Below are positions 5,945 through 40,988 of a DNA stretch of 64,000 nt, piece after piece. The DNA comes from a virus (Duplodnaviria > Caudoviricetes). A program made the translations under genes and the position numbers. The first letter of the stretch is position 1, and every line of letters starts with the position of its first letter. Location of the stretch: IMG/VR virus record IMGVR_UViG_3300027864_000205, positions 9,929 through 73,928 of that record; one strand, written 5' to 3'. The notes below the pieces were generated by a model. The model saw only the letters and a list, made by a program, of their open reading frames with translations, made no database searches and was not told where the DNA came from.

Positions 5945-8900
5945 AAGCTTCTTCCCCTTCCTCAAACACTTCCTCTTGTATAATGCCCATAAAGGCTTCT
6001 TTCAACCTTGGCGCTACTGTATCCCAAATACTCTCTTTATCAACGCCGGGTGCTTCAATTTTGCCGTTGCAGTTTATGTCGAGTTTCACGGCTCTATCTT
6101 GCGATTGTCGCGCAGTGCCACGACTATCTTGCGGTGCATTAGACATGGAGGGAGGTGGCGTTATATTGATAGGTGCTCGACCGTTTTCCGCTGCTGCCAT
6201 CCTGTGTGATTCGTTTGCAGGGTAAACCCTTTCACCTCCACTGAACGCCATAAGTTCAGGACCTTCTTCACCTACCCATGCGAGACCGGGAGGTGCGGAA
6301 CGTGTGCCTGTTGCGTAACCGCCGACATCTGTTCGACCGCCTAACGCTCCGGCAACTGCATTCGCTACTGATTCCGCTGCATCTCTCGCTCCGGCTATCC
6401 CTGCCCTGATATTTGCGATATACGCATCTATCGTTGCCTGCGCCGCGGCCCCTGCTTCATTCGACATATCCATGTCATCGATAGCAATGCCCAAGTTATC
6501 CAGAATTTCATCCATTCTGTTGTCAAAATCTGTGCTGATTTCAGCCATTGTCTGAGCAGTAGTATCTCGTGCTTCTGTTAAGTTTTCAAAGGTAGAGTTG
6601 ATTTCAGCAATCTTTGCAGCGGCTTCTTCTGGGTCAAGCCCTTCGAGTTCATTAACGAGCGAGGCAACCTGCGCCATGCTATCTTGACTACCATCACTCA
6701 GTTTGGTCAAGAAATCGGTGTTAATGTCGAAGTCTTGCAGTGCTTGCAGATTGTCGTTATACGCTTCAAAGAACTTAATTTGAGATTCCCAAGCCTCGAT
6801 GATATTTTGACTTGCAATCCCGGCTCTTTCCTCTGCCATTTCAAAAAGACCAAATGTGCCTTTGAGACTTCTTTGTGCAGAGTCGAATGCCACGTCAAAG
6901 GCTTCACTAAGTTCGAGCAAGCATTCAACGACACTCTCAATTGCTCGACCGACACCTTCTTCGTAAGTAATCCCTAATTGAACCGCTTCTGCTTCCGCTC
7001 GGGCGAGTGCTTCCGCTTGACTTTCCCACATCGCTTCGGTGGTTGCTTGGATGTGTTGGTTTTCGTAAAGCGCGGCACTTAATGCCTCGTAAACTTCTCT
7101 CGCTTCATCGACTTCTCGCCTATAGCGACTATGATTAAAAGAGAAACGCCCGACCATATCATCTCTGCGCTGAGCTGCCAAGGTATATTGCTCAGCGGCA
7201 AGCTGCAACTTAGCATATAGGTACTCTTCTTGGCGTAGGGCTTCGATGAACGCTTCGTGGGCGGCGGCCGTCCTTTCGCGCTCAACTTGTGCGGCAGCAA
7301 GGTCACGCATAGCCGCTGCGCATAGTACGAGTGATCCTGTAGCCTCGTCTATGTGTTCAGCCATTTCAGGGAATTGTGCAACGAGTTCTCCCGTTATCAG
7401 AGCCATTTGTTGCTGTTGTGCAGCAGTTATATCCGTAACATCAGATAGAACCTCTAGTCTGCTTATAAGAGCGCCGGCAGACCGCTCCTCTGCATCAAGA
7501 GCGTCCATTGTGGAGTAAAGGGTATCTGCCATTTCGCGGTGATTATCAATTAGCCTGTCAACCGTAGCGTAGAACTCTTCAAGCGTGACTCGGCTTGCTT
7601 CGAAAACAAGTCGAGAGGCTTCAAGTTCTCCGCGCAGCCTTTCGGCTTCTGGTGATAATTCGCCGTGGATCTCTACTGCACGTCTGTACTCATCGTTGAG
7701 CCTTGTAATTTCGTTATAACTCTGTCTTGATGTCATTGTTAGACTGTTGAACTCGGAGTTTGCATCGCTAAGCGCATTTCCAAGCAAAACCGCACCTGCA
7801 ACCACAGCGGCAATAGCGCCGGCGATGAGAAACACGGGACCGAGCGCAACTTTTGCAGTAGCTCCGAACACCGCAGTAACAGTTGTAGCCACCGCTTTCG
7901 CGGCAGTATACACCATTACAGCAGAAGTGGCTGCAACTAAGCCAGTACCGATAGTAGCTATCGCAGCGGCAACAGCAGGGTTCTCGTTGAGGAAGTCGCC
8001 AATCCATTGAACTATATCTGCAAGGCCTTCTGATGCTACAGTTACGGCAGGGGCGAGTACCCCTGTAAATGCAGCACTAATACTGTTTGTCGCCATTGCC
8101 CAGCGTTCTTCAAGCGTAGTCGCAGCTTCGGCAGTAGCTGATAATGTGCCGTCTGCACTTGCAATCTTCTCTACCCAATCATCAAAGACCATTGCGCCGG
8201 ATTGAATTGCAAACGCCAGTTCAGGCCCAGCACGCACACCGAATACTTCCACGGCTCGAGCCGTGGCTTCCGATGCGCTTTCCATGTTATAGATTTCTTC
8301 GATAGTTTCGCTAAGTGCTTCTCTTGCATCCCTGCCTTCTTGTCCTGCATATATAAGAGACCGCCTGAGTCCATACATGGCTGCACCGTAGTCTATACCT
8401 TTTTGCTCGAGCCTTGCAAAGAGCGCTACACTCTCGTCCATGCTAAAGTTGAGAGCATCAAGGGTAGCTTGATTACCGAGTAGCTTATATGTGAGTTGGT
8501 CTACGGCTATACCCGACAGTTGCCCGGCAAGCGTAAACTTATCTAGCACCCTTTCGGTTTCAGTAACTTCTATATTCCAGCGCGACATAAGCATCGATAC
8601 TGTCTTGATGGACGAGGTAACGTCTGCACCTGTCACATCGGCAAAGTCAAGATGTAAGCGTGTTGTCCTCTCCAGTTCATCGCCTTGGAGATTCAGCCGT
8701 GTATTGACTTCCGACAGGGCGCTGGCAACCAATGACAAGTCACCGTTTCGTGCTGTCGCGAATACATTCAACATTGAATTAGATAAGCCGTCAAGTGCTG
8801 CGCCTGTCGCACCTGTAGACTTGATTATGATAGCCTCTGCGCGTGAGTGTTCGTTCGCCATTTCGATGACCGCATCCGTGACTTGATTAACGAGTTTTGC

Positions 8901-20394: not shown

Positions 20395-21840
20395 CTATCT
20401 CTTATCTTTTGCCGCCGGTTTATCGTCCTTCAGGTTTACCGGGAGGCAGCAGAGAAGCAGACAATCAGCCTCATCGGGTGATGGGAGTCCACGCTCTTTC
20501 ATCGCCCTTTTGCTTTCCACCACTATCTTGTTGCGTCCGTTAAGCTCATATTTCCGTGACGAAAGCTGGGCAATAAGATCTGAATCATTTGGCAATATTA
20601 AATCCACCGGTTTCTTTTTGCCCTCGTCATCAATCTGCGACAGACGGTCACGCACGAACGCCATCATTACCGTTGTGGAGTCGTGGTAGTAGGGGTGCTT
20701 ACTATAGACTTTCCCAAAGTGGACGGGCAATACTTCAAGCCACCAGTAACGCTTGGGGTCGCTTGACTTTATCTGGACAAGACGGTCAGTTACGCCACCA
20801 CCTAAGCCGCCATCGTCTATCTTGACAGGAATCTTACGAGCGAACTTGTGCCTGTGCCTCAGTCGCTCGCCGAGCAATACGATTTCAGCAGCAGTCTTCA
20901 TCAGGTTCTGCCCTCGTATTTTTTTATGAAATTTCATATGCTCATTGACTGTGTACCCGATTACCGTCTTGTCATCGCCGTACCGTGCAACGTCACACCC
21001 GATATGTATGCTATGCACTGGCACACCCTCGCCTTGCTCTGACTCGGGATCTGGTATATCCGTATACATGACTGAGTTCTCTATGAGCGAGAGAGGTATG
21101 AATACATCATCTTCTTGCAGCGGGAAGTCTCCGCGTACCCTTACTCTGACGAAATTGCTTTCCTCTCCGTATTTCCTGATATTTGCCTCGATGTTCTCTT
21201 TGTTTGTGCGCGAGCTTTTCAAAGCGTTTACCGTATGGCATTTATAGAGGTCACGGTCTGATGTATGGCTGTCATAAAATGTGCCTGCGGTCTTTGTAGG
21301 GTTGCCGCACATCAAGAGCTTGTTGTTATCGCCGGATAGGGTGCCAAGTATAGCTTCCATGATAGGCTCAGCCACGCCGGAAGCTTCGTCCACTATAAAG
21401 AGCATATTGTCTTCGTGGAATCCTTGCATATTTTCTGGCTTGGTTGCAGTCCTCGCTACTGCGAACCACCGCTTCTCCATGCCTACCATGTATATATATG
21501 TTTTAGTCCATTTCAGAATAGCAGAGAGCAACGGACTTCGTGCTTGCCATTTTGCGACCTCGGCCCACAACACGTCATGCAACTGTTGGCGGGTTGGTGC
21601 CGTTGCTACCACGCGGGGAAAGGGGAAGCATGTTAGAAACCAGAGAAGTACCGCTGCTTCAAGTCCTGTTTTTCCGACACCTTGACCACTCTTTACCGAA
21701 ACCCTTTTTGATACTGCGAGATCCATTGCCGCAGCAGCTTGCCAATCGTCAGGCTCAAAGGTGAGTACTTCTCGAAAGAACAGGACAGGGTCTTTTTGGT
21801 ACATCTTCTGCCTCTGCTTGAAAAAATCATTTCTATTCAT
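20395..21840 (-). CDS. terL: Terminase large subunit
   Basis: Walker A SGQGVGKT, Walker B FIVDEASG, nuclease GCDVARYGDD, SPDEAD. Confidence 0.95.
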   Translation of the reverse strand: MNRNDFFKQRQKMYQKDPVLFFREVLTFEPDDWQAAAAMDLAVSKRVSVKSGQGVGKTGLEAAVLLWFLTCFPFPRVVATAPTRQQLHDVLWAEVAKWQARSPLLSAILKWTKTYIYMVGMEKRWFAVARTATKPENMQGFHEDNMLFIVDEASGVAEPIMEAILGTLSGDNNKLLMCGNPTKTAGTFYDSHTSDRDLYKCHTVNALKSSRTNKENIEANIRKYGEESNFVRVRVRGDFPLQEDDVFIPLSLIENSVMYTDIPDPESEQGEGVPVHSIHIGCDVARYGDDKTVIGYTVNEHMKFHKKIRGQNLMKTAAEIVLLGERLRHRHKFARKIPVKIDDGGLGGGVTDRLVQIKSSDPKRYWWLEVLPVHFGKVYSKHPYYHDSTTVMMAFVRDRLSQIDDEGKKKPVDLILPNDSDLIAQLSSRKYELNGRNKIVVESKRAMKERGLPSPDEADCLLLCCLPVNLKDDKPAAKDKR

Positions 21841-22696
21841 CGCCAGCACCGATGAGGGACTGTATCCACTCGACTGCTATAATGTTTTGCGTAGATTCGC
21901 TCTGACTTTGCTTGAGCCTATTCAAGGATTCGATACATTTTCGCTTTTCAGACTGAACTCTCGAAAGTTCTGCATGGGCGCGTAGCAGCAAGTCGGTGCT
22001 ATCCCGTGTGATTGTATTTACACTATATGTATGCCCCGGCAGACGCTTATCAGCTTCAACTTTTTCTGTTATTCTCTGCTGGTACAATTCTTTCTCTGCA
22101 TCATTTGCGAACTCGCGAAGTGTCTCTCCCCTAATAACTTGGTCAATCATAAGTCCTCGCGAGACGTTACCGAAGTTTTGGATTTGTTGTATTTTGTCTA
22201 ACAGCCAGCGTTCCCTTATTGTGAGGATTGCAATTTGTTCGTTCAGTATACTCTCTTCATCGGTAAGCACTGCAACCATCCCATTAAACAGTTTAAGGTC
22301 ATGCTCGGACAATATGTCCGAGTACGGATTAGGGCGAGAGTATATGCCGTGCGTTTCTGCAAGAGTATTGCCTGGTTGCAAGTTAGGCTTGCCCCCTTTA
22401 TTGCCTACTGCGTTTTTATTGCCTAGTGGCGCTCCGCGCTTCTTGGCTGGCGTTCCCTCTTGTGGTGCGCTCCCTTTCGAAGTGGAGCGTTCCACTTGTT
22501 TTTTTTTCGACGATTTTGTGGGGCGTGCGCTGCCGCTCGACTTTTTGCCGTCCCAGTTGTCGAGAGACTTCCACTTGCGAACTTTGGCTGCGGGAACTCC
22601 TAGATGCGCAGCAATGTCCACAAGCTTGACCGAGCCACCCTTATCATGGTACATCTGCTCGGCTTTTATCCTTTCTTCACTCTTAGGACTTGGCAT
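21833..22696 (-). CDS. terS: Terminase small subunit (HTH N-terminus)
   Basis: LVDIAAHLGV...VRKWKSLDNW HTH; GAPLGNKNAVG; THGIYS; upstream of terL. Confidence 0.85.
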   Translation of the reverse strand: MPSPKSEERIKAEQMYHDKGGSVKLVDIAAHLGVPAAKVRKWKSLDNWDGKKSSGSARPTKSSKKKQVERSTSKGSAPQEGTPAKKRGAPLGNKNAVGNKGGKPNLQPGNTLAETHGIYSRPNPYSDILSEHDLKLFNGMVAVLTDEESILNEQIAILTIRERWLLDKIQQIQNFGNVSRGLMIDQVIRGETLREFANDAEKELYQQRITEKVEADKRLPGHTYSVNTITRDSTDLLLRAHAELSRVQSEKRKCIESLNRLKQSQSESTQNIIAVEWIQSLIGAGDE

Positions 22697-22807
22697 ATTG
22701 CTCCACCTCGTAGTCGAATTAGTGTGTGTTCCTCGGCTTAGTTGCTGGGTCGGGGCAAAAACTCGCAACCTCTCCCCAACATGGTCAAGCGACCTTTTAA
22801 GTTGACA

Positions 22808-22839
22808 GGCTGGGTGTCCGCAAGTATGAACACCCAGCC
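22808..22839. other. GC-rich hairpin between the ParB-like gene and terS
   Basis: ggctgggtgt-N12-acacccagcc, 10-bp perfect stem; no clear U-tract. Confidence 0.5.
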
Positions 22840-22844
22840 ATAAC

Positions 22845-23366
22845 CTAAATATTTGTAAGCAGTTCCGCAGGGCTGTAACTCACATCTTTCTTGACCATCA
22901 TAGTCAGGAAGTCTTCTTTTGAGAAATCGGAGAGCCTGAATATTTCCTCTGGCTTCATACCGAGTTGCTTGCTTATTTCCTCGACACTCTTGCCATCAAC
23001 CATGAGCCTCCGTATGATAGCTTTCATCGGTTCAAGTAAGTGTACTCCGCGTGCCCTGTTATGTGTTATCGTGCCATAGATATTCTCGCTCTCGCCGTCG
23101 TGCTTAACAATGACAATCGGAACCTTGCCTCCAAGCAGAGACCAAAGGGGTTCTTCTCCCGACACGGTCCAACGGTGGAAGCCGTCGATTATAACCATAT
23201 CAGGATTTACGACAATTGGTAGTGTCCATCCATTCGTCAATATGGACTGTGTGAGTAGTTTCAGGTTTTCCTTTGATACTCGATTCGGGTTGTAGTCGTT
23301 AGCTTTTAGCAACTTTCTGTCCACCCATGCAAGCGTTGATAAAGGGGTAAAAACATTATTTTTCAT
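22845..23366 (-). CDS. ParB/Srx N-terminal domain protein (IbrB-like)
   Basis: LKANDYNPN, GWTLPIVV, IIDGFHRW, TITHNRARGVH. Confidence 0.88.
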   Translation of the reverse strand: MKNNVFTPLSTLAWVDRKLLKANDYNPNRVSKENLKLLTQSILTNGWTLPIVVNPDMVIIDGFHRWTVSGEEPLWSLLGGKVPIVIVKHDGESENIYGTITHNRARGVHLLEPMKAIIRRLMVDGKSVEEISKQLGMKPEEIFRLSDFSKEDFLTMMVKKDVSYSPAELLTNI

Positions 23367-24508
23367 TTTGCCACTACCTCCCGTGCTTTTTTCGCATTGT
23401 CTATGTAGCGGCCGTATATCCTATTGAAGAGCGCCCTGTATGCCCTGAGTTTTGGGTCGCCCCTTATAAGTGATTCGTAGATTTCCCGAAAGTCACGTTG
23501 CGATGCTATTGCTGATACCTGCATGAAGAAGTTCCGGTATCTGATTGCTGTTTTCAGCTTGCTTGGTGTGTTGAAGTTTTGCACCATGTTGGCGAACAGG
23601 TTTATAAGCAAAGCTTTGTAATCTTTCTGCTCTTTACCTTCCATTTCACGCCTTGTTTTGGTGCGCCTCCCGAACATTTCAGAATCCCAATAGAGTGTAG
23701 CTAAATATGCGTTTGGTTCTCTTTTCGTTATACGCTCCATCAGGTCCGGGTAGTATTCATTCATCTGCACAAGACTCTTTGCTGTATCAACACTGAAGAA
23801 CTGCGATACCCTGAGTTGGCTTTTTGAGGTGCCAGTCTGCCAAAGGTAGAGGTATATTTCGGGGATTTCTACTCTCTGCTCGAGCAGATATTTCCACACG
23901 TCATTGTTTGTCCAGTCGTATATGGGGAATATCTGCCTTTTGTTGGTCATCTTCTTTCCAGCCATTGTCATGGTTGCGAGATTCTTTAATCGCTGTATTG
24001 ATTCCGCTGCGCGTATGCCGACGATTGTCATACCGTCCATACACATACGCGGTAGCCAATCTTGGTACGCATCTTTCCTCGGTCTGAGCATTGGGTGTTC
24101 CGTTATTGCGAATGATGGAGGTCTTCTTACCCAAACATCTTCTTTTGTTCGGTCCCAGCATATAAAGCTTTCATCTTCCGAGAGTTCATTGAAGCAATTA
24201 AAATGCTTCACTTCCACACAATACCACTCGAAGGAGGCGCCGACCGCAATGAATTTTCTGCGCCAAGCTTTCACCGTGTCCTCAATGCACTTGAAGATAG
24301 CTTCTTCGTCTACAAAGTGTACGACGAGCTGTTCGGCTTTGATTTTACCGTGCTGTATCAGGTTCATTACGACCTGTGCGAGTGCGAGGCTGTCTTTTCC
24401 TCCGCTAAAGCTCATGTAGACAGGCACTCCGTTGTCAAAGACGTTTTTGATGCGCTGCTCTGCCGCTGCAACCACATCAATATCGGCTATACATCGTTTT
24501 ATAGCCAT
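23363..24508 (-). CDS. PAPS-reductase-like PP-loop protein (IbrA-like)
   Basis: SFSGGKDS PP-loop, VGIRAAES..R, FPIYDW...DVW. Confidence 0.88.
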   Translation of the reverse strand: MAIKRCIADIDVVAAAEQRIKNVFDNGVPVYMSFSGGKDSLALAQVVMNLIQHGKIKAEQLVVHFVDEEAIFKCIEDTVKAWRRKFIAVGASFEWYCVEVKHFNCFNELSEDESFICWDRTKEDVWVRRPPSFAITEHPMLRPRKDAYQDWLPRMCMDGMTIVGIRAAESIQRLKNLATMTMAGKKMTNKRQIFPIYDWTNNDVWKYLLEQRVEIPEIYLYLWQTGTSKSQLRVSQFFSVDTAKSLVQMNEYYPDLMERITKREPNAYLATLYWDSEMFGRRTKTRREMEGKEQKDYKALLINLFANMVQNFNTPSKLKTAIRYRNFFMQVSAIASQRDFREIYESLIRGDPKLRAYRALFNRIYGRYIDNAKKAREVVAK

Positions 24509-25089
24509 ATTTCACTATTGCAATGAGGACAGATTATTCGCTTATCACTTTCGGCATCCCCCGCTTGCGGCTCTGCAGGGTTCACTTCAACGCTCGGCGG
24601 CGCCATCATCGCTTCTTTCTTTACACTTCCAGCGTTGATTTGCGCTATTTCCTCCGCGCCTATTTTGCCGTACTCGCCTATTTTCTTTGAAATCTCGCTT
24701 GCATCGGCTACCATGGAGCGAAGTATATCTTCATCGAAGCCAGGCACATCAAGGTCGTGCTTGAGTTCATCTAGAAATGTGTTAAATGTGTCAAGATCGT
24801 CTATACCGAGCCCATAAATCTTATTGTCGGCTATCATCAGTTTCTTTTTCTGATTCTCCGAAAGACCGGATACTCTGTAGAAGTCACCTTCTGTACGGCC
24901 GAGTAGTTGTAGGGTGTCGTAACACCCTACTCCCGCCATGATTGTATTGTTTTCGTCGATGACTATCGGACGTATCTGCCCGAACATCGTTATGCTGCGC
25001 CCAAACTCATGTAACTGCTTTTCTGTATGTATGCGCACGTTACGTTCAGGCTTCTTGATATCGGCAAGAGGAAGGCGTTCGATTTTCAT
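24499..25089 (-). CDS. ParB N-terminal domain protein with C-terminal CPHC zinc knuckle
   Basis: PERNVRIH, FGQIRPIVID, KLMIADNK, IICPHC. Confidence 0.85.
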   Translation of the reverse strand: MKIERLPLADIKKPERNVRIHTEKQLHEFGRSITMFGQIRPIVIDENNTIMAGVGCYDTLQLLGRTEGDFYRVSGLSENQKKKLMIADNKIYGLGIDDLDTFNTFLDELKHDLDVPGFDEDILRSMVADASEISKKIGEYGKIGAEEIAQINAGSVKKEAMMAPPSVEVNPAEPQAGDAESDKRIICPHCNSEIWL

Positions 25090-25865
25090 GCGCCCACCAC
25101 CTCTATATACCGCTTTGCTCCCGGAAGCACCGTTGCAGCCTCGCGTACTATGTCGGGGTCAATTTCAAAGACCTCTTTCCAACCGTTGTCCTCGTTTTTG
25201 GTATACTGACGTGCAGGCCATGGGTGGGTACCGCAAACATATCCACTGTGCCAGTCGTATATAGGCGGCATTGGTAATTTATGGTAATGGCAGTATGCAA
25301 GTACCTGTTCGTGCGACCACTCGGAGAGTGGACTATAGCGTGTAACACCGTTACCCGCCATGTATATGTTCGATTTCCGACCGACATAGTTACCATCAGC
25401 CCGCCTTCTGCCAAGTAACAGAAAGTCTAAGCCTTTTGATTTGTAATATAATTGCTGCGCCCTGTGTTGCACAATAGAAAACCATTTAGCCGCGACTGCG
25501 CTATTTTGCGGGAAGAGCATTTTCGGGTTTTTTGCAAGCCATTCGAGATTTAAGCCTACATTAATGACTTCGCAACTTTTGGGTTTGTTTTCCTGTATCC
25601 ATTGAATAAATGCAGGGTATTCAAGGTCGCAGACACCAATCATGCTTTCGTGGATACCGGCACTCTCGCAAACATGACCGAGTACAATGCTGTCCTTGCC
25701 GCCTGACCATGCATAAGCGGACTTTTTCCCCTTGACCGTTTTCTTAATTGCTTTTACGGTCTCGGTTGTGAGCTTTTCTACTTCCTTCAAGGAGACAAGG
25801 CTCTCTATGTTTTTAAGCGTTTCGAGCCACGCTCCGTTATCAGTTCTTTGCTTTTTACCCAGCAC
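25086..25865 (-). CDS. Second PAPS-reductase-like PP-loop protein
   Basis: AWSGGKDS, LGRRRADGN, SPLSEWS; probable GTG start at 25865 after GGAGG. Confidence 0.85.
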   Translation of the reverse strand: MLGKKQRTDNGAWLETLKNIESLVSLKEVEKLTTETVKAIKKTVKGKKSAYAWSGGKDSIVLGHVCESAGIHESMIGVCDLEYPAFIQWIQENKPKSCEVINVGLNLEWLAKNPKMLFPQNSAVAAKWFSIVQHRAQQLYYKSKGLDFLLLGRRRADGNYVGRKSNIYMAGNGVTRYSPLSEWSHEQVLAYCHYHKLPMPPIYDWHSGYVCGTHPWPARQYTKNEDNGWKEVFEIDPDIVREAATVLPGAKRYIEVVGA

Positions 25866-27234
25866 TTCGACGCACCTCCCATCTTGAAACAATGAGAGCT
25901 ATTGCGGCACTAAGCAACACAGTTGTCAGGCTTCCTATCGTTCGAAACATCGCTACCCCCGCAATATTACCGTATGCAAATATTGGAAGTCCGACAACAA
26001 GAGAAGTTAGTATGCCATAAAACATACCTTTACCTGTAAGTTTCTTACCTAAAAGTGTCAGTATCGTTGGCAGTAGTGTAGATGCCCTCTGTGTGCCATA
26101 GAGCAAAAACAGGTACGTGATGGTTATGCCCGGGATATTCGCAATTATTATCGCGAGTATCAGGGTGGCCGCCATAACAAACTTTGATTTTTTCGCTTTG
26201 TCATAATCGGTCGTGAATGATGCTGCTGCAACTAAACTGCTATCCACTGTCGAGAGCAGTCCCGAAATGACCATAAACATGAATGGCGCGAGTGTCCAAG
26301 CCGGGAATCTGTATATTATGAATTCGAGGTTTACCACTCCTGTATCGGACGGGGTGAAGCCTGAACCTGCCGCAACAAATCCGAGTATAGCCATGCAGAT
26401 AGGCACAACTGCGAATAGAAATGCTCCTATCCTGAACGATGCACCCACTTTATCGGACTTAATGGAAAATGCTCTTTGCCAAAAGCTCTGATCTCCAAAT
26501 GGACCTGATAAAAGCCCTATAGTCGATGGCAAGCCAAAGCCAAGGAAGAGTGCGAGCCCAGCCTCGCTGATAAGACTGCTGTACTGCCCGGACACTGATG
26601 ATAAGCCTCCGACAAAATCACTCATTCCCGTGCCGCTGGTCAGAGTAGTTACTGCAAATGCAACACTGGTTACAATCATTATAACCATCTGTACCGCGCC
26701 AGTTGTCATTGAAGCCTTTATCCCTGAGAATTGCGAGTACGAAAATGCAATAACAGCCAATATGATTGTCAATAGCCAAAAGGGAAGCCCTGTTGTCACC
26801 TCTAACATACGCCCGCCGGCGAGCAACTGTACGGCTGCTGCAAACATCGAAAGCATGGAGAGTTGGACTTGATATATCCCCCGGACTTTTGGGGAGTCAT
26901 ACTTCTCGCCCATGAATGCAGAAAGCGTGATGCCGTTCGGCATCTGAGCGCGTATCCGCTTTGCATAAAACGAGAAAAGGATTAAGCATGCCACATTAGG
27001 CACAAGAAACCAGAAAACGCCCGGCCAGCCCGTGAGGAAAGCCCTCTCTGCCGACACGAAAAGAGCAGGAGCCCATATCCATGTACACCCTATACAGAGC
27101 GAAGCCTTGACTAGACCCATTTTCCTGTTACCAACATGAAAACTCTCATCGCCACAGTCCGTCTTTTTAGTAAAGCCTATCGTGACAATGAGCATTAGTG
27201 CTGTGTAAACTAATAATATTATGATTCCGTTCAT
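25855..27234 (-). CDS. Sodium:solute symporter (SSS) family transporter
   Basis: 459 aa, about 13 hydrophobic segments; TWIWAPALFVS, GIKASMTT, GDQSFWQRAFS, GLLSTVDS. Confidence 0.88.
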   Translation of the reverse strand: MNGIIILLVYTALMLIVTIGFTKKTDCGDESFHVGNRKMGLVKASLCIGCTWIWAPALFVSAERAFLTGWPGVFWFLVPNVACLILFSFYAKRIRAQMPNGITLSAFMGEKYDSPKVRGIYQVQLSMLSMFAAAVQLLAGGRMLEVTTGLPFWLLTIILAVIAFSYSQFSGIKASMTTGAVQMVIMIVTSVAFAVTTLTSGTGMSDFVGGLSSVSGQYSSLISEAGLALFLGFGLPSTIGLLSGPFGDQSFWQRAFSIKSDKVGASFRIGAFLFAVVPICMAILGFVAAGSGFTPSDTGVVNLEFIIYRFPAWTLAPFMFMVISGLLSTVDSSLVAAASFTTDYDKAKKSKFVMAATLILAIIIANIPGITITYLFLLYGTQRASTLLPTILTLLGKKLTGKGMFYGILTSLVVGLPIFAYGNIAGVAMFRTIGSLTTVLLSAAIALIVSRWEVRRSAG

Positions 27235-27354: not shown

Positions 27355-27393
27355 AACATAAAATGCACCACCCCTCGGCGAAAGGGGTGGCAT
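27355..27393 (-). terminator. Terminator/attenuator-like hairpin in the late leader
   Basis: Minus strand ATG-CCACCCCT-TTCGCCG-AGGGGTGG-TGCAT then TTTATGTT. Confidence 0.55.
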
Positions 27394-27434: not shown

Positions 27435-27490
27435 AGAATATCATATCTCGTTCGCTTCGTATTGTGTCACTTTGGCGCATCTTGGCGCAT
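27435..27490 (-). promoter_or_regulatory. Putative activator-dependent late promoter with tandem activator sites
   Basis: ATGCGCCAA twice at 10-bp period (27472-27490) at the 3' end of the ArpU-like gene; extended -10 TGaTATTCT (27443-27435); poor -35. Confidence 0.5.
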
Positions 27491-27886
27491 ATTTCCGAAA
27501 AATGTTTTTATTTTCCTATCAATCTGGCTTTTTGAATACCCAATAATCTTTGCAGTTGCCTCAACTGTGTGCAACTCAATGTACCGGCGTGTGAGTATTT
27601 GTCTCATTATGCTATCGTCAACACCTTCTATGAACCTCTCCACTTCCGTACACTCGTCTTCATATCTCTTAGCTCGCGCTCTGAGCCGGGGTCCTGCCTT
27701 TTTGACGTATCCCTTGATAGCAACCACATGCTTGGAGTATGGCGGCTCGTTTGACGATGCGAGTACAGTATCTGTTATTTCACATGCATCTTCGCTTGCT
27801 ATCTGCTCTTCGAGCATAATTATTTCACTACGGATATTTCCGTAGTTTTCAATTCTACGCCGAGTCATTGGTATAGCATTTTTCAT
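27467..27886 (-). CDS. ArpU/RinA-family late transcriptional activator
   Basis: 139 aa; EVERFIEGVDDSIMRQIL..RYIE C-terminal HTH; last early gene. Confidence 0.8.
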   Translation of the reverse strand: MKNAIPMTRRRIENYGNIRSEIIMLEEQIASEDACEITDTVLASSNEPPYSKHVVAIKGYVKKAGPRLRARAKRYEDECTEVERFIEGVDDSIMRQILTRRYIELHTVEATAKIIGYSKSQIDRKIKTFFGNMRQDAPK

Positions 27887-29070: not shown

Positions 29071-29904
29071 TTATAGCTCTGCGAATTTTAGTTGTTGTGA
29101 TGCCTCGTAGTTGCACCAAAGTGTCTCTGTTCTTTCGGTTGCAGATTCGGTATGGCAAGTGGTTTCATACCGATGCCAGTCGGCAAGAGTGTCCTCGTAA
29201 AGCGGACTTTTGTATGCCGAGAGCAGTACAGGCCCGCAATGTTCCATCAGGAGTGCTAACAGTTTTCTATGTTGCTCGTTTGTGAACTCATGTTTGTATA
29301 TTCTCCCGTTACGTGTTTCCATCAAATATGGTGGATCTGCGTATATCACACAGTTATGTTGATTGTGCCGTCGTATAATCTCAAAGGCATCAATATTATC
29401 TATTTGCACTATGTTATTAGGGGAGGCGTGTTTAAGCCTTTGGCATATAGCTAGTATGTTACTAGGGATATTTGTGCAGAATCTGGCAACATTTCCATTT
29501 GCAGCCTTTATATTTTTACGCCAACCTGTCTTAGTGGAGGATTTTGCACCGATTGCTTGCCACATACGCACTATAAACCGTCGCGCACGCTCAACATCAT
29601 CTATTTCCCCGCTATCAGAATACGATTCCGCATATTCTTCTCTCGCCCATGGCGTAAGGTACACGGCTCTCGCCAATTCTTCCGGATAATCTCTTGCCAT
29701 CCTGAAAAGATTTACAACATCGCTGTCGAGGTCGTTAATTGTTTCCACTTTCGACCGCTCTTTTGTGAAGAACACTGCGCCAGACCCAAAAAACGGTTCA
29801 AGGTATGTCATGCGCTCGTAACCAGCAGGGAAATGCTCTACTATCCACGGAGCAATAGTCCATTTACTGCCCGGATATTTGAGAATGTTCTTGTTTGGTC
29901 TCAT
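29071..29904 (-). CDS. N6-adenine DNA methyltransferase (Dam/D12 class)
   Basis: KYPGSKW, YLEPFFGSGAV, YADPPY. Confidence 0.92.
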   Translation of the reverse strand: MRPNKNILKYPGSKWTIAPWIVEHFPAGYERMTYLEPFFGSGAVFFTKERSKVETINDLDSDVVNLFRMARDYPEELARAVYLTPWAREEYAESYSDSGEIDDVERARRFIVRMWQAIGAKSSTKTGWRKNIKAANGNVARFCTNIPSNILAICQRLKHASPNNIVQIDNIDAFEIIRRHNQHNCVIYADPPYLMETRNGRIYKHEFTNEQHRKLLALLMEHCGPVLLSAYKSPLYEDTLADWHRYETTCHTESATERTETLWCNYEASQQLKFAEL

Positions 29905-31642
29905 TTGCCCTCACTTTCAGGCTATCGACAATCTTTTTCATGTGTACGGTAGCTACTGCCTGCGCAATCGCCTTGTCTGCCTCAGTTTCGCCCTTGTCAC
30001 CCATGATTCCGTTGAACTGTTCTATCTTTTGACCGAGAAACTCCTGTATGACTTCATCGGTGCCTTCCTCTGCCACAAGATAGTAGCAAAGCACGCTATC
30101 TGTTTGCCCGATACGGTGAGCCCTGTCCTCAGCCTGAGTATGTATTGCCGGCGACCAATCGAGTTCCCCAAACACAACACAGGTTGCCCTTTGGAGATTT
30201 AGACCGGAGGATGCTCGAAGGCTTATCATGCATAAGTTTGTATCTCCGTTCATAAAGGCGTTGACCGATTCCTCTTTTTCTTTTGAACTTTGCCGACCTG
30301 TTATCATCACCGGACTGTGTGATTCAAGCACTTCTGCATACTCATCAAATACTTTGTGGTGGTACGCAAATACCAAGACAGCTTCTCCTGCTTCAAGTAA
30401 CATTTTGAGAAATGTCGCCACATATGGAGCTTTTGCAATGCCTATTGCCTGACGGCTTTCGCGCACAATTTCCCTTGTCATACGCCCACGTTCAAAATAA
30501 TCCTCGACACTGCCTATCCGGCCCGCCATAGAGACTGCGTTGTGTATGAGTTCAGAATACATGCCACTGTCAAAATCAACTGTCTGGATAACTCTGCGTT
30601 TAGGCGGCAATTCTTTGAGAACTTCATCTTTCGTTCTTCGGAGCATGAGCCCTTCTCGCCTCAGATAATCTCCCAAGAGGTCAGGATCTCTCACGATGTC
30701 GTTGCCGTATCCATAGCACCACTCTCTTGTAAAACTCTCCCAGTCACCCAAACAATGATACTCAATGATGTTCATAACTGCCCACATTTCGCCGCCTCGG
30801 TTATGTATCGGTGTGCCCGATAACCCTATAACATCGGGAACACTAGAGGCCAACAAGGATGCTGAACTGTACTTTTCTGTGCCTGTATGCCTTAACTCCT
30901 GTATCTCATCAAATATAACGGCTTTGAAGTCATAGTCCTGTAATGCTGTCTTCCACCCCCGGAGAAGGAGATAATGCACAATGTATATGTTCGCAGGTGG
31001 CAATTCATATGGGGTAAGCCCCTTCAGTACATGCACCGTTTCAGGTTTATCAAACATACTTAACTGGTCACCAGCTCCGGGAAGTTTTAGAAAACGCTTT
31101 ATTTGCGGTACCCAGTTTGTTGTGATTAAATGCGGTTGTACCACAATGACCGCAGGGTACGCATTTTTCGCAGCGAGGAAAGCGAGTGCTTGAATAGTTT
31201 TTCCTAACCCCATTCCATCAGCAAGCAGTGCGCGTTCTGTTCCGAGCAAGTACGAAAGCCCCTCTTTTTGAAATTCCCTTAGTTTTCCGATAAATTCAGG
31301 TGGTGCTTCTGCTTTGTTCGGCCGTTCATTGAATTCACGTATACGTACTGCATGATCGACCGCTTCCTGATAACTTTTTCCCCACGCCTCTTTGTCAATT
31401 ATTTCGAGAGGGTAGCGTAGCATAAGCCAATTAAGATTTTCGGCATTTCTTTTGGTTGCCGGGAATTTGCAATGGCGGCTACCCCTGCCGACAGAGCCCG
31501 GAAATATACGCTTAACTACCTGCACCATCCCGGGTTCTCCCGCAACTATCCATTGAGTAATCCTTCCATTCACGATGATAGGTTCAAGGGTGCCGTATGT
31601 TTCTTTGCTTTCCGGCAATTTTTGCAGATACGCGGGAATCAT
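29864..31642 (-). CDS. SNF2-family DEAD/H helicase
   Basis: LADGMGLGKT, FDEIQE, LSGTPIHN, QAEDRAHRIGQ. Confidence 0.93.
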   Translation of the reverse strand: MIPAYLQKLPESKETYGTLEPIIVNGRITQWIVAGEPGMVQVVKRIFPGSVGRGSRHCKFPATKRNAENLNWLMLRYPLEIIDKEAWGKSYQEAVDHAVRIREFNERPNKAEAPPEFIGKLREFQKEGLSYLLGTERALLADGMGLGKTIQALAFLAAKNAYPAVIVVQPHLITTNWVPQIKRFLKLPGAGDQLSMFDKPETVHVLKGLTPYELPPANIYIVHYLLLRGWKTALQDYDFKAVIFDEIQELRHTGTEKYSSASLLASSVPDVIGLSGTPIHNRGGEMWAVMNIIEYHCLGDWESFTREWCYGYGNDIVRDPDLLGDYLRREGLMLRRTKDEVLKELPPKRRVIQTVDFDSGMYSELIHNAVSMAGRIGSVEDYFERGRMTREIVRESRQAIGIAKAPYVATFLKMLLEAGEAVLVFAYHHKVFDEYAEVLESHSPVMITGRQSSKEKEESVNAFMNGDTNLCMISLRASSGLNLQRATCVVFGELDWSPAIHTQAEDRAHRIGQTDSVLCYYLVAEEGTDEVIQEFLGQKIEQFNGIMGDKGETEADKAIAQAVATVHMKKIVDSLKVRANETKQEHSQISGQ

Positions 31643-32115
31643 AAGGCAATCCCCCATTGCTTCTGCAAGCCTATTACAACACACGGCTTGCCGTTACTGG
31701 TTTCAGGTATTGGATTTCTCAGGCTTGAAGCCACGGCTATCACCACCGCTTCCACTATGTCAAACTCAGCATAGCGGCTCACCTGCGCTTCAAGTCTCGC
31801 CCAGTTAGGCTTGCCTTTCTTGACCTCAACCACTACTGCCGATGTTACTGCCAGTTCGCCACTTACCCAGCAAAGGAAGTCCGCTCGGCATCCGCGACCT
31901 AGCTTATACTCTCTTATGTGCTGAATGCCATGCTCGGCTAATATCTCAGAGATTTTATTTTGCAAAGCAGACTCGGCAATGGTAACGCCTACCCGAAGGG
32001 TCTTTAGTGCCTTTTCAATTTTGTCAACAGTCTCATTCATGTCCATACTACTCCATTCGTAAATTTTGCAAAGTAACTCTGTATCGCCATAACTTTGATT
32101 GTCCTGTGCGCTCAT
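31639..32115 (-). CDS. PD-(D/E)XK nuclease-fold protein
   Basis: REYKLGRGCRADFL...VEVKKG...QVSRY. Confidence 0.65.
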   Translation of the reverse strand: MSAQDNQSYGDTELLCKIYEWSSMDMNETVDKIEKALKTLRVGVTIAESALQNKISEILAEHGIQHIREYKLGRGCRADFLCWVSGELAVTSAVVVEVKKGKPNWARLEAQVSRYAEFDIVEAVVIAVASSLRNPIPETSNGKPCVVIGLQKQWGIAL

Positions 32116-39126: not shown

Positions 39127-40944
39127 CTATCCCGCCATTTCTTCCATTAGTTTTGACATTGTCACTATCTTCTTTCCACACAGCTCTGGAAGGTTTGCTC
39201 TGACAATTGCCTCTGAAAATGGCGGCGGTACCGCATTCCCACAACGGGCAACTTGTGCCGCTTTACTTATCGGTGAGCCCAATGCACCAGCATCTATCAC
39301 ATAATCAGACGGAAAAACCTGAGCATTAAAAAGCTCTCTAGGTGTGAGCATTCGCAAGCCTATGTCGGTTATTGCATACTGCTGACCGCGTATAGTAACA
39401 AGCCCTAAGCGGTCTTTTGATGTGATGGTATGTGTCGGGGCGGTTATATCTTGCGCATCATCACCGCCGTAATATTTAATCAACAACGCTCTAACTTCGC
39501 CGAAATGCCCTGCACTTGTGAGTATCGTATTGAGTGGTTCTCTGAGGTCTTGACCGTTGCTGTTATTGCGAAACAATGTGAGTTGCGAAGTGATTAGTGC
39601 GTTATGGTCGATTGCAGTTACTGTGTTTAGCGGGTCTGTGACACTGTTTCCTTTTCCATCATAACCGCCACTATAGTATTTACTAAGAAAAGACATCACC
39701 ACGCCGTAGCGGTTCTCGGTGTCCACGGTCAGTAATGGTTTCTCTATTGACTGACCTCTGGTTTCGTCCTTGCCTTGCTCGTCGTGATACTGAATGAGTG
39801 TCGGTGTGACAAGTATATTGCGACCACCTGTTGTTACTGTCGGCAAAGGCTCGTTTGCACCAGTAGGCACGTTATCACTCATGTTTGGTACGATGCATGG
39901 AGTAACGCTTGCTTCAATCACACATTGCTCTGCTTTGGAAACGATTGTTCTGACAGGCTCATCGACGGGATACGACCTGTCGCTGGTAAAGCCAGTATGT
40001 CCTATTGCAGTCATCGTCGGAACAACAATCCCAAGCCCATTTTTTCCAGTCATTGTGTTAGTAGGCTCACCTATGCTATGACCTCTAAAATCATCACCGC
40101 TTCTGTTCACCTGCACAACAAAAGGCTCAGGATTGTCGAGTACAAATTTCTTTATCCCTCGCGCAATGCGCCTAAGTGTTTTTTCTGCAAGAGGTCTTAC
40201 AGCTCTCACACCATACTGCTGTTGAATTTCCGCAGAGCTTGCGAATATGGAAGGACACGGAAGATTCCAGTCAATTATCTCTGCGGCTGTGCGCCACGGT
40301 TTCAGCTTGCCGCTTTTAACGGCTTCGCTGTCCGGGGCACCGTGCGTAGGTCGGGGCCAGACTATAGGCGCATCGTCACACCGAGCAATCAAGAAAAGTC
40401 TCTTGCGTATCGTTGGTGCCCCATAGTCGCATGCCCTAAGCTCTTCCCACTCCACTTTGTAACCGTGATGTTTTAGTGCATTCACAAAGCTGTGGAATGT
40501 ATGCCCTTTCTTTTCTTTGACAGGGTGTCCTGCTTTGTCAAGCGGACCCCAATCCTTGAATTCTTCTACATTTTCCATAGCAATCATTCTCGGCCGGACA
40601 GTTGCCGCCCATCGCACAGCTACCCATGCAAGACCCCTAATCTCTTTTTTGCGCGGCTTTCCACCACGCGCCTTGCTGTGGTGCGTGCAGTCAGGCGAGA
40701 GCCATACAAGTGCGACTCGTCGCCCTGCGGTCACTTGCCGAGGGTCAACTTCCCATACATCCTCACAATAATGCTTTGTGTATGGGTGGTTGCGCATGTG
40801 CATAGTTATTGAATCAGGGTCGTGGTTAATCGCTATATCCACAGGTCGCCCGGTGGCAAGTTCAATGCCTGTAGATGCGCCTCCTCCTCCTGCGAAATTA
40901 TCAACTATTAACTCATCGAATATTGAGGTTTGTTTTTTCGTCAT
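39127..40944 (-). CDS. C5-cytosine DNA methyltransferase
   Basis: DNFAGGGGAS, WLSPDC.HHS, MENVEEF, YGAPTIRKRLF, CGNAVPP. Confidence 0.93.
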   Translation of the reverse strand: MTKKQTSIFDELIVDNFAGGGGASTGIELATGRPVDIAINHDPDSITMHMRNHPYTKHYCEDVWEVDPRQVTAGRRVALVWLSPDCTHHSKARGGKPRKKEIRGLAWVAVRWAATVRPRMIAMENVEEFKDWGPLDKAGHPVKEKKGHTFHSFVNALKHHGYKVEWEELRACDYGAPTIRKRLFLIARCDDAPIVWPRPTHGAPDSEAVKSGKLKPWRTAAEIIDWNLPCPSIFASSAEIQQQYGVRAVRPLAEKTLRRIARGIKKFVLDNPEPFVVQVNRSGDDFRGHSIGEPTNTMTGKNGLGIVVPTMTAIGHTGFTSDRSYPVDEPVRTIVSKAEQCVIEASVTPCIVPNMSDNVPTGANEPLPTVTTGGRNILVTPTLIQYHDEQGKDETRGQSIEKPLLTVDTENRYGVVMSFLSKYYSGGYDGKGNSVTDPLNTVTAIDHNALITSQLTLFRNNSNGQDLREPLNTILTSAGHFGEVRALLIKYYGGDDAQDITAPTHTITSKDRLGLVTIRGQQYAITDIGLRMLTPRELFNAQVFPSDYVIDAGALGSPISKAAQVARCGNAVPPPFSEAIVRANLPELCGKKIVTMSKLMEEMAG

Positions 40945-40988
40945 ACCTATCTTTCCTCCATTTTTCAAAAATTGGACAAGGCTCATCT

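Follow-up and report, generated by a model that had tools for sequence, protein, structure and literature searches.

A five-gene phage cassette pairing a presumed importer with two PP-loop and two ParB-like proteins ahead of the terminase genes

The stretch of DNA analysed here, called the window below, comprises 64,000 nucleotides of a complete 74-kb gut phage genome, and it carries five overlapping genes ahead of the terminase genes terS and terL; every feature described for the window lies on the minus strand. The cassette opens with an SSS-family secondary transporter of 459 aa, a presumed importer (25855..27234; PF00474, phrog_20720), and continues with PP-loop protein 1 (PP1; about 259 aa, PAPS-reductase fold; 25086..25865; PF01507, phrog_424), an accessory member of the set, and with ParB-like protein 1 (ParB1; 196 aa; 24499..25089; phrog_620), which has an acidic linker and, in its C-terminal part, a CPxCG motif. 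It closes with an IbrA-like PP-loop protein 2 carrying an SGGKDS motif (PP2; 381 aa; 23363..24508; phrog_2302) and an IbrB-like ParB protein 2 (ParB2; 173 aa; 22845..23366; phrog_2159). The cassette is flanked on one side by a putative late transcriptional activator of 139 aa (27467..27886; phrog_36, E 4.4e-12; weak Sigma70_r4 match), a role that is plausible for this regulator, and on the other by terS (21833..22768; PF10668, E 2.7e-14; phrog_1889, E 2.9e-49) and terL (20395..21849; phrog_2, E 7.8e-38; phrog_5902). A homologue of the activator precedes the importer in the related locus L165 as well.

The first-pass annotation had described five translationally coupled genes between the activator and terS, and all five were found at the coordinates given above, with overlaps of 4–11 nt. 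Read from the sequence, the transporter and PP1 overlap by 11 nt, the true start of PP1 being the GTG at 25865 behind a GGGAGG and not the TTG at 25892; PP1 and ParB1 have an ATGA in common, as do PP2 and ParB2, and ParB1 overlaps PP2 by 10 nt. The leader between activator and transporter holds a terminator-like hairpin (27366..27392), with a stem of 11 bp and a T-rich stretch behind it; this leader matches no Rfam family, and the uORF that follows the hairpin is not conserved across 50 related leaders. Between ParB2 and terS (22808..22839) lies a perfect inverted repeat, its two 10-bp arms separated by a loop of 12 nt and no T-tract coming after it; at the corresponding position, related loci frequently show a hairpin that is unrelated to this one.

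Both PP-loop proteins score above the cut-off for PF01507, a PP-loop-type nucleotide-binding fold (PP1, E 8.9e-9; PP2, E 1.3e-11). PP1 further matches phrog_424 (E 4.7e-33) and carries SGGKDS and GRRxxDGN motifs, and PP2 matches phrog_2302 over residues 1–367 (E 5.7e-90), with SGGKDS, GxRxxESxxR and PxxDW as invariant motifs. The architecture of PP2 is that of a PAPS-reductase-fold N-domain joined to a helical DUF3440-type C-domain; DUF3440 (PF11922) is not detected in PP2 of the window itself and is detected in aligned full-length orthologues, namely the distant L081 (E 4.4e-11), P0264 and P0260. In the AF2 model of PP2 (pLDDT 88), residues 7–250 are closest in fold to APS/PAPS reductases, the PAPS domain of FAD synthase (FMNAT) and CysD, with VIA-align Z-scores of 12–14.7. 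With CysH, CysD and FMN adenylyltransferase this N-domain has about 170–180 aligned residues in common, including the PP-loop and phosphate-binding motifs, but it differs from them in its 10–17% identity, its lack of a catalytic cysteine and its obligatory ParB partner, and PP2 has, in addition to what that group has, a helical C-domain in which a GDxKxR motif is invariant.

The catalytic cysteine of CysH lies in a C-terminal ECGLH-type motif, whereas neither the PP1 nor the PP2 family has a conserved cysteine: the highest columns reach 83% (A1), 76% (A2) and 75% (A5), the maxima being 83% for PP2 and 75% for PP1. The C-terminal half of PP2 has no conserved cysteine, and the sole C-terminal candidate in PP1, GYxCGTH, is present in 62% of alignment rows. 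Because conserved cysteines are lacking, PP1 and PP2 are neither PAPS reductases nor DndC-type sulfurtransferases. An identity as CysH was accordingly rejected, the catalytic cysteine being missing and the NCBIfam CysH models giving 17–24 bits against cut-offs of 154–254; taken together, the NCBIfam CysH, APS-reductase and CysD models give 16–34 bits on the PP-loop proteins against cut-offs of 154–413.

ParB1 belongs to phrog_620 (E 1.2e-42), with a Pfam ParB_N match at only E 0.11, and has homology to the ParB domain that phage DNA methyltransferases carry (phrog_498, E 1.7e-26; PADLOC MTase_II, E 3.7e-13). ParB2 belongs to phrog_2159 (E 5.5e-67) and consists of a ParB/Srx N-domain (DGFHRW) followed by an HTH, with NDYNPN, DGFHR and HNRARG as invariant motifs. 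Its model matches Noc, ParB and KorB over the N-domain and HTH (TMq 0.56), while SerK, SbnI and Srx, small-molecule kinases that share the fold, are matched over about 90 residues only. ParB2 is thus modelled as a miniature HTH-containing protein of the ParB/Noc/KorB type. Neither protein is a canonical ParB of a ParABS system, which would have a GERRxRA-type CTP-binding motif, an HTH, a C-terminal dimerization domain and a partner ParA: in ParB2, GERR is replaced by DGFHRW and the chain, 173 aa in all, stops after the HTH; the gut-clade form of ParB1 has lost the arginine of GxxR; no ParA lies nearby; and TIGR00180 reaches 22 bits where its cut-off is 58. The loss of this arginine counts against the reading favoured below.

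The transporter matches PF00474 over residues 32–409 (E 4.7e-16; 59.1 bits against a cut-off of 22.8) and phrog_20720 (E 1.7e-156), and its ESM Atlas model is confident, with 12–13 TM segments; 2480 relatives were found at E<=1e-3 among 8000 candidates scored. It resembles the SSS family (PutP, PanF, ThiV, DUR3, CHT1) in the PF00474 core and stays under every subfamily cut-off, so that the NCBIfam models assign it at superfamily level only (PanF, 55 bits against 328; PutP, 47 against 516). DUR3 is a urea/polyamine carrier, and a DUR3-like amine substrate had been suggested for the phage protein from its TWIWA motif. DUR3 is indeed its best PDB sequence match (E 2.7e-7), mainly over the N-terminal ~170 residues (32–204), and the TWIWA/QWTWA segment is common to both in the alignment; the match appears, however, to be at fold level, with PanF and PutP profiles as good or better, which leaves the amine as a weak lead. 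There is no sign of orthology to the ThiV-type HMP importers, as no TPP riboswitch lies beside the bacterial homologues; Rfam riboswitches were found neither in the window leader nor in 20 loci with non-phage transporter homologues.

The co-occurrence that the first-pass annotation had proposed surveying across phages is borne out. In the 62 related viral loci whose sequence extends 4.2 kb or more past the transporter on its downstream side, PP2 is present in 60, ParB2 and ParB1 in 59 each, and PP1 in 46, about a quarter of related cassettes thus missing PP1; in genome loci, PP2 and ParB2 are retained beside the transporter in 31 of 50. This arrangement of five genes is far beyond chance. Marine and freshwater phages, whose transporter and PP2 have 42% and 25% identity to those of the window, respectively, carry the order ParB1–SSS–IbrA–IbrB in front of unrelated terminases (phrog_15/57 and phrog_38), and two further loci (L078 and L130) have all five genes in different orders. 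The retention of the set across distant phages with unrelated terminases supports one conserved mobile unit heading the packaging operon, and the data are best explained if the five genes work together as a phage cassette of IbrA/IbrB (YbdN/YbdM) type that spreads horizontally. Our literature search found no paper describing this five-gene cassette.

What is new here is a linkage of transporter and PP-loop enzyme outside phages and the replacement of the importer in sister phages. In eight loci, the gene immediately preceding a non-phage SSS homologue (43–54% identity) encodes an AsnB-like PP-loop enzyme; this enzyme starts with MG.. instead of MC.. and is therefore without the glutaminase nucleophile. 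In six CPR-type loci, two of them on one contig, the SSS homologue lies no more than two genes from an SGGIDS PP-loop protein. In the related locus L166 the SSS slot is filled by a NitT/TauT-type ABC importer, made up of a permease and a binding protein resembling SsuA/TauA, and in L162, L165, L167, L171, L172 and L173 by a membrane protein of 300–366 aa, for which a relationship to SSS was found in L172 only, that of L173 having no detectable one. The idea of an importer feeding adenylating enzymes gains independent support from the non-phage homologues, which lie beside two other types of PP-loop protein, and sister phages put another importer at the same slot.

The identification of the last two genes as an IbrA/IbrB-type pair is upheld by phrog_2302, phrog_2159 and the DUF3440 of the orthologues. 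As in IbrA/IbrB of E. coli and the K-12 paralogues YbdN/YbdM, a PAPS_reduct and DUF3440-type protein is followed by a coupled small ParB-like protein. Pairs annotated as IbrA/IbrB, or as a PAPS reductase with a ParB-like protein, also occur in cultured phages (S. thermophilus CHPC877, Gadjet gp4/gp5 and Flavobacterium columnare phages), where the terminase is often the next gene and a further ParB-like gene is often present; mycobacteriophage Gadjet has the order ParB, IbrA-like, ParB, terminase. The present cassette differs from these pairs in its second PP-loop protein (phrog_424), its second ParB-like protein and its dedicated SSS importer. Of 223 records of cultured or deposited phages that have an IbrA-like gene, one has the transporter and 222 lack it, which marks the importer as accessory to IbrAB. 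A combination of PAPS-reductase-fold PP-loop protein and ParB-superfamily protein recurs in the DNA phosphorothioation systems Dnd (DndB/DndC) and Ssp (SspB/SspD) and with the BrxP of BREX type 4, and the DndC and BrxP profiles match the cassette weakly, confined to the GxRxxES/PxxDW segment. In contrast to Dnd and Ssp, the cassette, which holds five genes alone, has an importer and no conserved cysteines, and no cysteine desulfurase, DndD/DndE or SspC occurs within it; without conserved cysteines its PP-loop proteins perform no Fe-S cluster or persulfide chemistry. The earlier analogy with DndC thus fails on the cysteines, and TIGR03183 (DndC) gives 30 bits against a cut-off of 290. Another parallel is the Dpd system of 7-deazaguanine DNA modification, in which the ParB-like ATPase DpdB assists DpdA in installing a small-molecule-derived group (PMC10164549, PMC12839542): there, too, a ParB-like partner accompanies an enzyme, but the present cassette has no transglycosylase, catalysis would fall to a PP-loop enzyme, and the cell apparently imports the precursor instead of making it.

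We tentatively favour, at a little below even confidence, a system of adenylyl transfer in which ParB-like proteins direct the enzymes to phage DNA and an imported solute supplies them. The SSS protein would take up a small solute late in infection; PP1 and PP2, which lack catalytic or cluster cysteines and hence are better read as adenylyl-transferases or ATP pyrophosphatases than as reductases or sulfurtransferases, would adenylylate a substrate using ATP; each would be brought to DNA by its ParB-like partner; and the solute, or a group derived from it, would be placed on phage DNA while it is being packaged or just before, the most plausible purpose being protection from host nucleases. The direction of import, the late timing, the pairing of PP-loop with ParB-like proteins, the DNA target and the protective role are all inferred, DNA being suggested as the target by the ParB2 model, the homology of ParB1 to methyltransferase ParB domains and the position of the cassette. 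Several observations count against this reading: the structural neighbours of PP2 are small-molecule rather than nucleic-acid enzymes, the importer is accessory to IbrAB, and some IbrA/ParB pairs lie away from the terminase (S. thermophilus CHPC877, Microcystis Mwe-JY13). So does the sole published IbrAB phenotype: prophage genes are reportedly activated by IbrAB (Sandt et al. 2002), an effect to which annotation notes likewise link the pair.

The same structural matches would fit a pathway without a DNA target, which we consider rather unlikely: the solute would be phosphorylated by ParB/Srx-fold kinases, on the model of SerK, SbnI and sulfiredoxin, and then adenylylated by the PP-loop enzymes, as FMN is to FAD and sulfate to APS, yielding a nucleotide-linked metabolite for host takeover, counter-defence or virion assembly. 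The best structure matches of PP2 (FMN adenylyltransferase, CysD, APS/PAPS reductases) are small-molecule enzymes, kinases of the fold are among the ParB2 matches, and bacterial relatives of the transporter sit beside AsnB-like or other PP-loop enzymes in biosynthetic-looking clusters. Yet ParB2 matches the kinases over its N-domain only and the DNA-binding ParB/Noc/KorB over the HTH also, ParB1 corresponds to the ParB module found fused to DNA methyltransferases, and the cassette has no transferase to use an activated product. A regulatory module, in which IbrA/IbrB-type co-activators or anti-silencers would act on late (prophage) genes and the transporter would supply or sense a signal, draws on the HTH of ParB2, its resemblance to KorB, a ParB-type transcriptional regulator, and the position between late activator and late genes. 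It seems improbable, as regulation alone poorly explains two invariant ATP-pyrophosphatase sites and a dedicated importer, the cassette travels among phages with unrelated terminases and regulators, and its own place after the activator probably puts it, too, under late control.

Still less probable is that the importer serves packaging directly, by supplying counter-ions such as polyamines for DNA condensation, with an independent IbrAB in the same operon. The DUR3 match, the adjacency of terS and terL and the lack of any transporter beside most IbrAB pairs agree with it, but that match appears to be at fold level, the phage transporter gene overlaps the one after it and is almost never found without IbrA/IbrB (60 of the 62 loci have them), and its non-phage homologues again accompany PP-loop enzymes. 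The reading usually given to phage PAPS-reductase genes, and found in several virome papers, is auxiliary sulfur metabolism, here two cysH products boosting host sulfate assimilation. The PF01507 matches, the CysH-like fold and the sulfonate-type binding protein at the SSS slot of L166 accord with it; the PP1 and PP2 sequences contradict it, given the missing C-terminal catalytic or other conserved cysteine in both families and the NCBIfam scores far under cut-off, and an obligatory ParB partner and a terminase-adjacent position would make no sense for sulfate assimilation. We regard it as very improbable; judged by these sequences, the cassette is not the sulfur-metabolism gene of its usual label.

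A more specific form of ParB-guided adenylyl transfer, possible but doubtful, is a novel DNA modification whose side group comes from the environment instead of being made in the cell, with a ParB-like loader bringing a cysteine-free PP-loop adenylyl-transferase to the phage DNA. The solute would then belong to a class carried by NitT/TauT-type ABC systems as well as by this SSS subfamily, such as a sulfonate or taurine-like, ureido or aminopyrimidine compound, and would be attached just before packaging, whether to a base, to the backbone or at the ends of the genome. If this is true, related chemistry may be expected in the bacteria that pair this transporter with AsnB-like PP-loop enzymes; in the SSS tree, the AsnB-linked transporters are interspersed with those of environmental phage cassettes.

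The temperate, siphovirus-like phage from which the window derives carries a DGR, an integrase and a tRNA, and its IMG/VR virus record, rated complete at 73,928 bp, supplies bases 9929-73928. Gene calls and family matches bore out the minus-strand set of five genes that the first-pass annotation had placed at 22845-27234, namely an SSS-family transporter (25855-27234; PF00474; phrog_20720, E 1.7e-156), PP-loop protein 1 (PP1; PF01507, phrog_424), whose start was placed at GTG 25865 from the junction sequences, ParB-like protein 1 (ParB1; phrog_620), PP-loop protein 2 (PP2; phrog_2302, the "IbrA" family) and ParB-like protein 2 (ParB2; phrog_2159, the "IbrB" family). The translational coupling proposed for these genes likewise held, with junction overlaps of 11, 4, 10 and 4 nt and accompanying Shine-Dalgarno motifs. 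The cassette, presumably expressed late, lies between an upstream gene for a 139-aa phrog_36 regulator with weak similarity to sigma-70 region 4 and the downstream terS, terL and portal genes, and the only convincing minus-strand hairpin of terminator type nearby is in its leader, at 27392-27366. A Leu-rich leader uORF was not conserved among 50 related leaders. Between ParB2 and terS, which are 76 nt apart, lies a perfect 10-bp inverted repeat (22808-22839) that has a 12-nt loop and lacks a T-tract; hairpins are common at this place in related phages but their sequences are unrelated, and a conserved parS-like palindrome was therefore rejected.

The expectation that these genes recur together in other phages was confirmed by an IMG/VR scan with the transporter as query, in which 80 of 103 loci were kept and the 62 loci with at least 4.2 kb downstream of the transporter were used for counting: PP2 was found in 60 of the 62, ParB2 and ParB1 in 59 each and PP1 in 46, with the exact gene order of the window kept in 42. 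PP1 is the dispensable member of the cassette. In marine and freshwater phages the order ParB1-SSS-IbrA-IbrB stands ahead of terminases from families other than that of the window (phrog_57/phrog_15 and phrog_38), at 42% identity to the window for the transporter and 25% for the IbrA-like protein; one locus (L078) has an extra PP1-like gene after IbrB, and a Chloroflexi prophage (L130) shows the order SSS-ParB1-PP1-PP2-ParB2-terL. This retention with the transporter, together with the occurrence in distant phages with unrelated terminases, indicates that the set is old, moves as a unit and has repeatedly come to head the packaging operon. A 2OG-Fe(II) oxygenase gene (phrog_81; L081:6718-7392) stands directly ahead of ParB1-SSS-IbrA-IbrB in one phage of marine or freshwater origin; L078 lacks it.

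The nearest prophage relatives of the window cassette belong to Lachnospiraceae, Oscillospiraceae and other Clostridia, and hundreds of Lachnospiraceae and Oscillospiraceae phages, prophages of cultured strains included, carry it. Cassette prophages make up 31 of the 50 loci retrieved among species-representative genomes, the cultured carriers being Otoolea muris DSM 111138, Lachnospiraceae bacterium JLR.KK009, Eubacterium plexicaudatum ASF492 and Parablautia sp. Marseille-Q6255. In the E. plexicaudatum prophage (L100:8328-12655) an insertion of ~3.5 kb splits the PP1 gene, so that this strain supplies a naturally occurring PP1 mutant; in the Parablautia prophage the transporter match (L132:7001-8363) comes as two pieces that overlap (7001-7663 and 7599-8363), suggestive of a frameshift. 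Among deposited phages, megablast with the cassette gave no match, and the only carrier at the protein level was one unannotated gut contig, MT836198.

Counted regardless of the rest of the cassette, IbrA-like genes are found in 223 deposited phage records (Flavobacterium, Mycobacterium, Streptococcus, Arthrobacter, Bacillus and others), where a ParB-like neighbour is usual and a position directly before the terminase frequent, as in mycobacteriophage Gadjet, whose gp1 is ParB, gp4 PAPS-reductase-like, gp5 ParB and gp6 the terminase; the cassette differs from these in its transporter, which only the gut contig also has. It is a real, conserved phage system, a doubled and importer-coupled form of IbrA/IbrB, a kind already known though uncharacterised; we found no functional study in the literature, whether of IbrAB/YbdNM or of the cassette itself. 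DNA-modifying enzymes with partners of the ParB superfamily are established precedents (DndB/DndC, SspB/SspD and DpdB/DpdA).

The two PP-loop proteins were examined in alignments of 29 and of 50 sequences for PP2 and of 16 for PP1. In both, the SGGKDS PP-loop is invariant, and the motifs by which the PF01507 group binds phosphate are present (GxRxxESxxR and PxxDW in PP2, GRRxxDGN in PP1). No cysteine column exceeded 83% conservation in these alignments, and none lay in the C-terminal half of PP2; the PP-loop sites are cysteine-free. CysH requires a C-terminal catalytic cysteine, and DndC and SspD require cluster and persulfide cysteines. Membership of either group was rejected on these residues, and the NCBIfam models for CysH, CysD and DndC scored far under their cut-offs, while PADLOC defence models gave weak segment matches to DndC and BrxP only. 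The PP2 model is confident (pLDDT 88), and its residues 7-250 are closest to APS/PAPS reductases, the PAPS domain of FAD synthase (FMN adenylyltransferase) and CysD (Z 12-14.7), as against Z <=11 for tRNA-modifying PP-loop enzymes; its helical C-domain, with an invariant GDxKxR motif, is the counterpart of DUF3440, which Pfam detects in distant orthologues. Fusions of IbrA-like halves to baseplate J, SSF, lambda-type portal or metallo-beta-lactamase domains (representative-library proteins P0139, P0160, P0173 and P0177) look like assembly chimeras and should not be counted as domain architectures or taken as functional hints, and an N6_Mtase fragment in two such fusion entries was given no weight.

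Of the ParB-like proteins, ParB2 (model pLDDT 76) has a fold of the DNA-binding type, its N-domain and HTH alike matching Noc, ParB and KorB (TMq 0.56; 141 columns at rmsd 3.7 A), whereas small-molecule kinases of the same fold match over ~90 residues only; it carries the nucleotide-site motif DGFHRW and an invariant HNRARG motif. ParB1 shares homology with the ParB module that stands N-terminally in phage fusions of ParB to a DNA methyltransferase (phrog_498, E 1.7e-26; PADLOC MTase_II, E 3.7e-13); it ends in a CPxCG motif, and the arginine of its GxxR motif is lost in the gut clade.

The transporter has the SSS fold but falls under every subfamily threshold. The DUR3 resemblance, from which amine import had been suggested, stands in that DUR3 is the best PDB match and a W-x-W-A segment is common to both, but the match is weak (E 2.7e-7) and lies mainly in residues 32-204. 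Homologues outside the cassette give another view of the family: 19 of the 50 genome loci hold non-phage SSS homologues, at 43-54% identity, without ParB or IbrA genes, and here too PP-loop enzymes are the neighbours. In eight genome loci, from Planctomycetota, Pseudomonadota, Spirochaetota, Clostridia, Aminicenantes and others, an AsnB-like protein of 580 aa (PF00733, E 5.5e-71), which lacks the glutaminase nucleophile because its N-terminus reads MG.. and not MC.., is encoded immediately upstream of the SSS gene; ahead of it there is usually the gene for a Toprim-like protein (~325 aa) with a zinc ribbon and 2 TM segments. The full set forms a conserved bacterial operon (L120:3782-8401; also L110, L111, L118, L121 and L133), which matched no family above cut-off and nothing in PADLOC, and two loci (L114 and L126) have the AsnB-like and SSS genes only. 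In CPR/Patescibacteria genomes (L108:1141-10265; L109, L106, L116, L117 and L122) the SSS homologue adjoins two proteins without known family, one of them a 364-aa protein with a VFYSGGIDSTL PP-loop motif, which lies at most two genes from the transporter in these six loci (two from one contig); some also encode YcaO, nitroreductase-family and SDR-family proteins and two further paralogues without known family nearby, and the whole looks like a small biosynthetic cluster.

A quick ML tree of the transporters places five of these six loci in a CPR clade, gathers the Firmicutes-phage transporters in one clade (SH-aLRT 100) and intermixes the AsnB-linked transporters with those of environmental phage cassettes. 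This SSS subfamily is thus tied to ATP-pyrophosphatase chemistry in three independent settings, which supports the solute being a substrate or co-substrate of adenylation. The idea of a ThiV/HMP importer found no support, since no TPP or other riboswitch, but rRNA matches only, was found beside 20 non-phage SSS homologues; the leader of the window transporter likewise matched no Rfam family, whether at gathering score or with the limit relaxed to E<=10. In a single case, a Bdellovibrionales MAG (L124:4939-8329), the SSS homologue starts 2 nt after the gene for anaerobic ribonucleotide reductase (NrdD).

A PP2-centred scan turned up sister cassettes with another occupant of the SSS slot. One of them (L166) has an ABC permease, with SaoP and TauC as best NCBIfam matches, and an NMT1/THI5-like family binding protein whose matches, none of which reaches its cut-off, are in descending order SsuA_fam (E 7.7e-31), TauA and a putative urea-binding family. 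Six others (L162, L165, L167, L171, L172 and L173) have a membrane protein of 300-366 aa; that of L172 has SWxWG and LLSGPxGDxxWQRA segments in common with SSS (BLASTP E 2e-7), and that of L173, to which the L165 protein is 41% identical, has no significant match to SSS. These candidate replacements confirm in part that importers are interchangeable in the slot, and they may point, loosely, to a small polar solute of the sulfonate/taurine, ureido or aminopyrimidine kind.

The reading best supported by these data is that the ParB proteins, possibly in physical pairing with the PP-loop proteins, would guide the latter, acting as adenylyl-transfer enzymes, onto phage DNA around packaging, and that a solute taken up by the transporter would feed the system. 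Three competing readings are that the pathway deals purely in small molecules, that the cassette serves in regulation, and that the transporter imports a counter-ion. A fourth, sulfur assimilation, would accord with the virome papers, in which phage "PAPS reductase/cysH" is among the most often reported auxiliary metabolic genes (gut, bee, rumen and environmental) and is used to argue for boosted sulfur metabolism, even host health; it is contradicted by the sequences, which offer no catalytic cysteine. Together with the constant company of ParB-like DNA-binding partners and the position at the packaging operon, this makes the sulfur-metabolism reading almost certainly wrong for this large class of phage "PAPS reductase". 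The importance of the cassette is therefore twofold, in the correction of a common annotation and in possible new biochemistry: under ParB-guided adenylyl transfer, uptake of an outside compound would be coupled to ATP-dependent activation chemistry, which is without precedent in phages, and once solute and product are named, a new modification of nucleic acids or a new way of countering host defence could come to light, and the long-orphan IbrAB/YbdNM family could gain a function.

Elsewhere in the window, 2 kb upstream of the cassette, the gene for a 606-aa SNF2-family ATPase (29864-31684, minus strand; E 6e-31 to ISWI/SMARCA5-type chains) overlaps by 41 nt that of a Dam-type N6-adenine methyltransferase, the pair occupying 29071-31684 on the minus strand. 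The SNF2 helicase was discarded as a conserved cassette neighbour, there being no homologue within the flanks of 213 related loci. Besides the Dam gene, two further DNA-methyltransferase-like genes lie on the minus strand at 39127-40986 and 47159-49108, with matches to phrog_116 and, in part, to phrog_6263/799; the investment of this phage in DNA modification is heavy.
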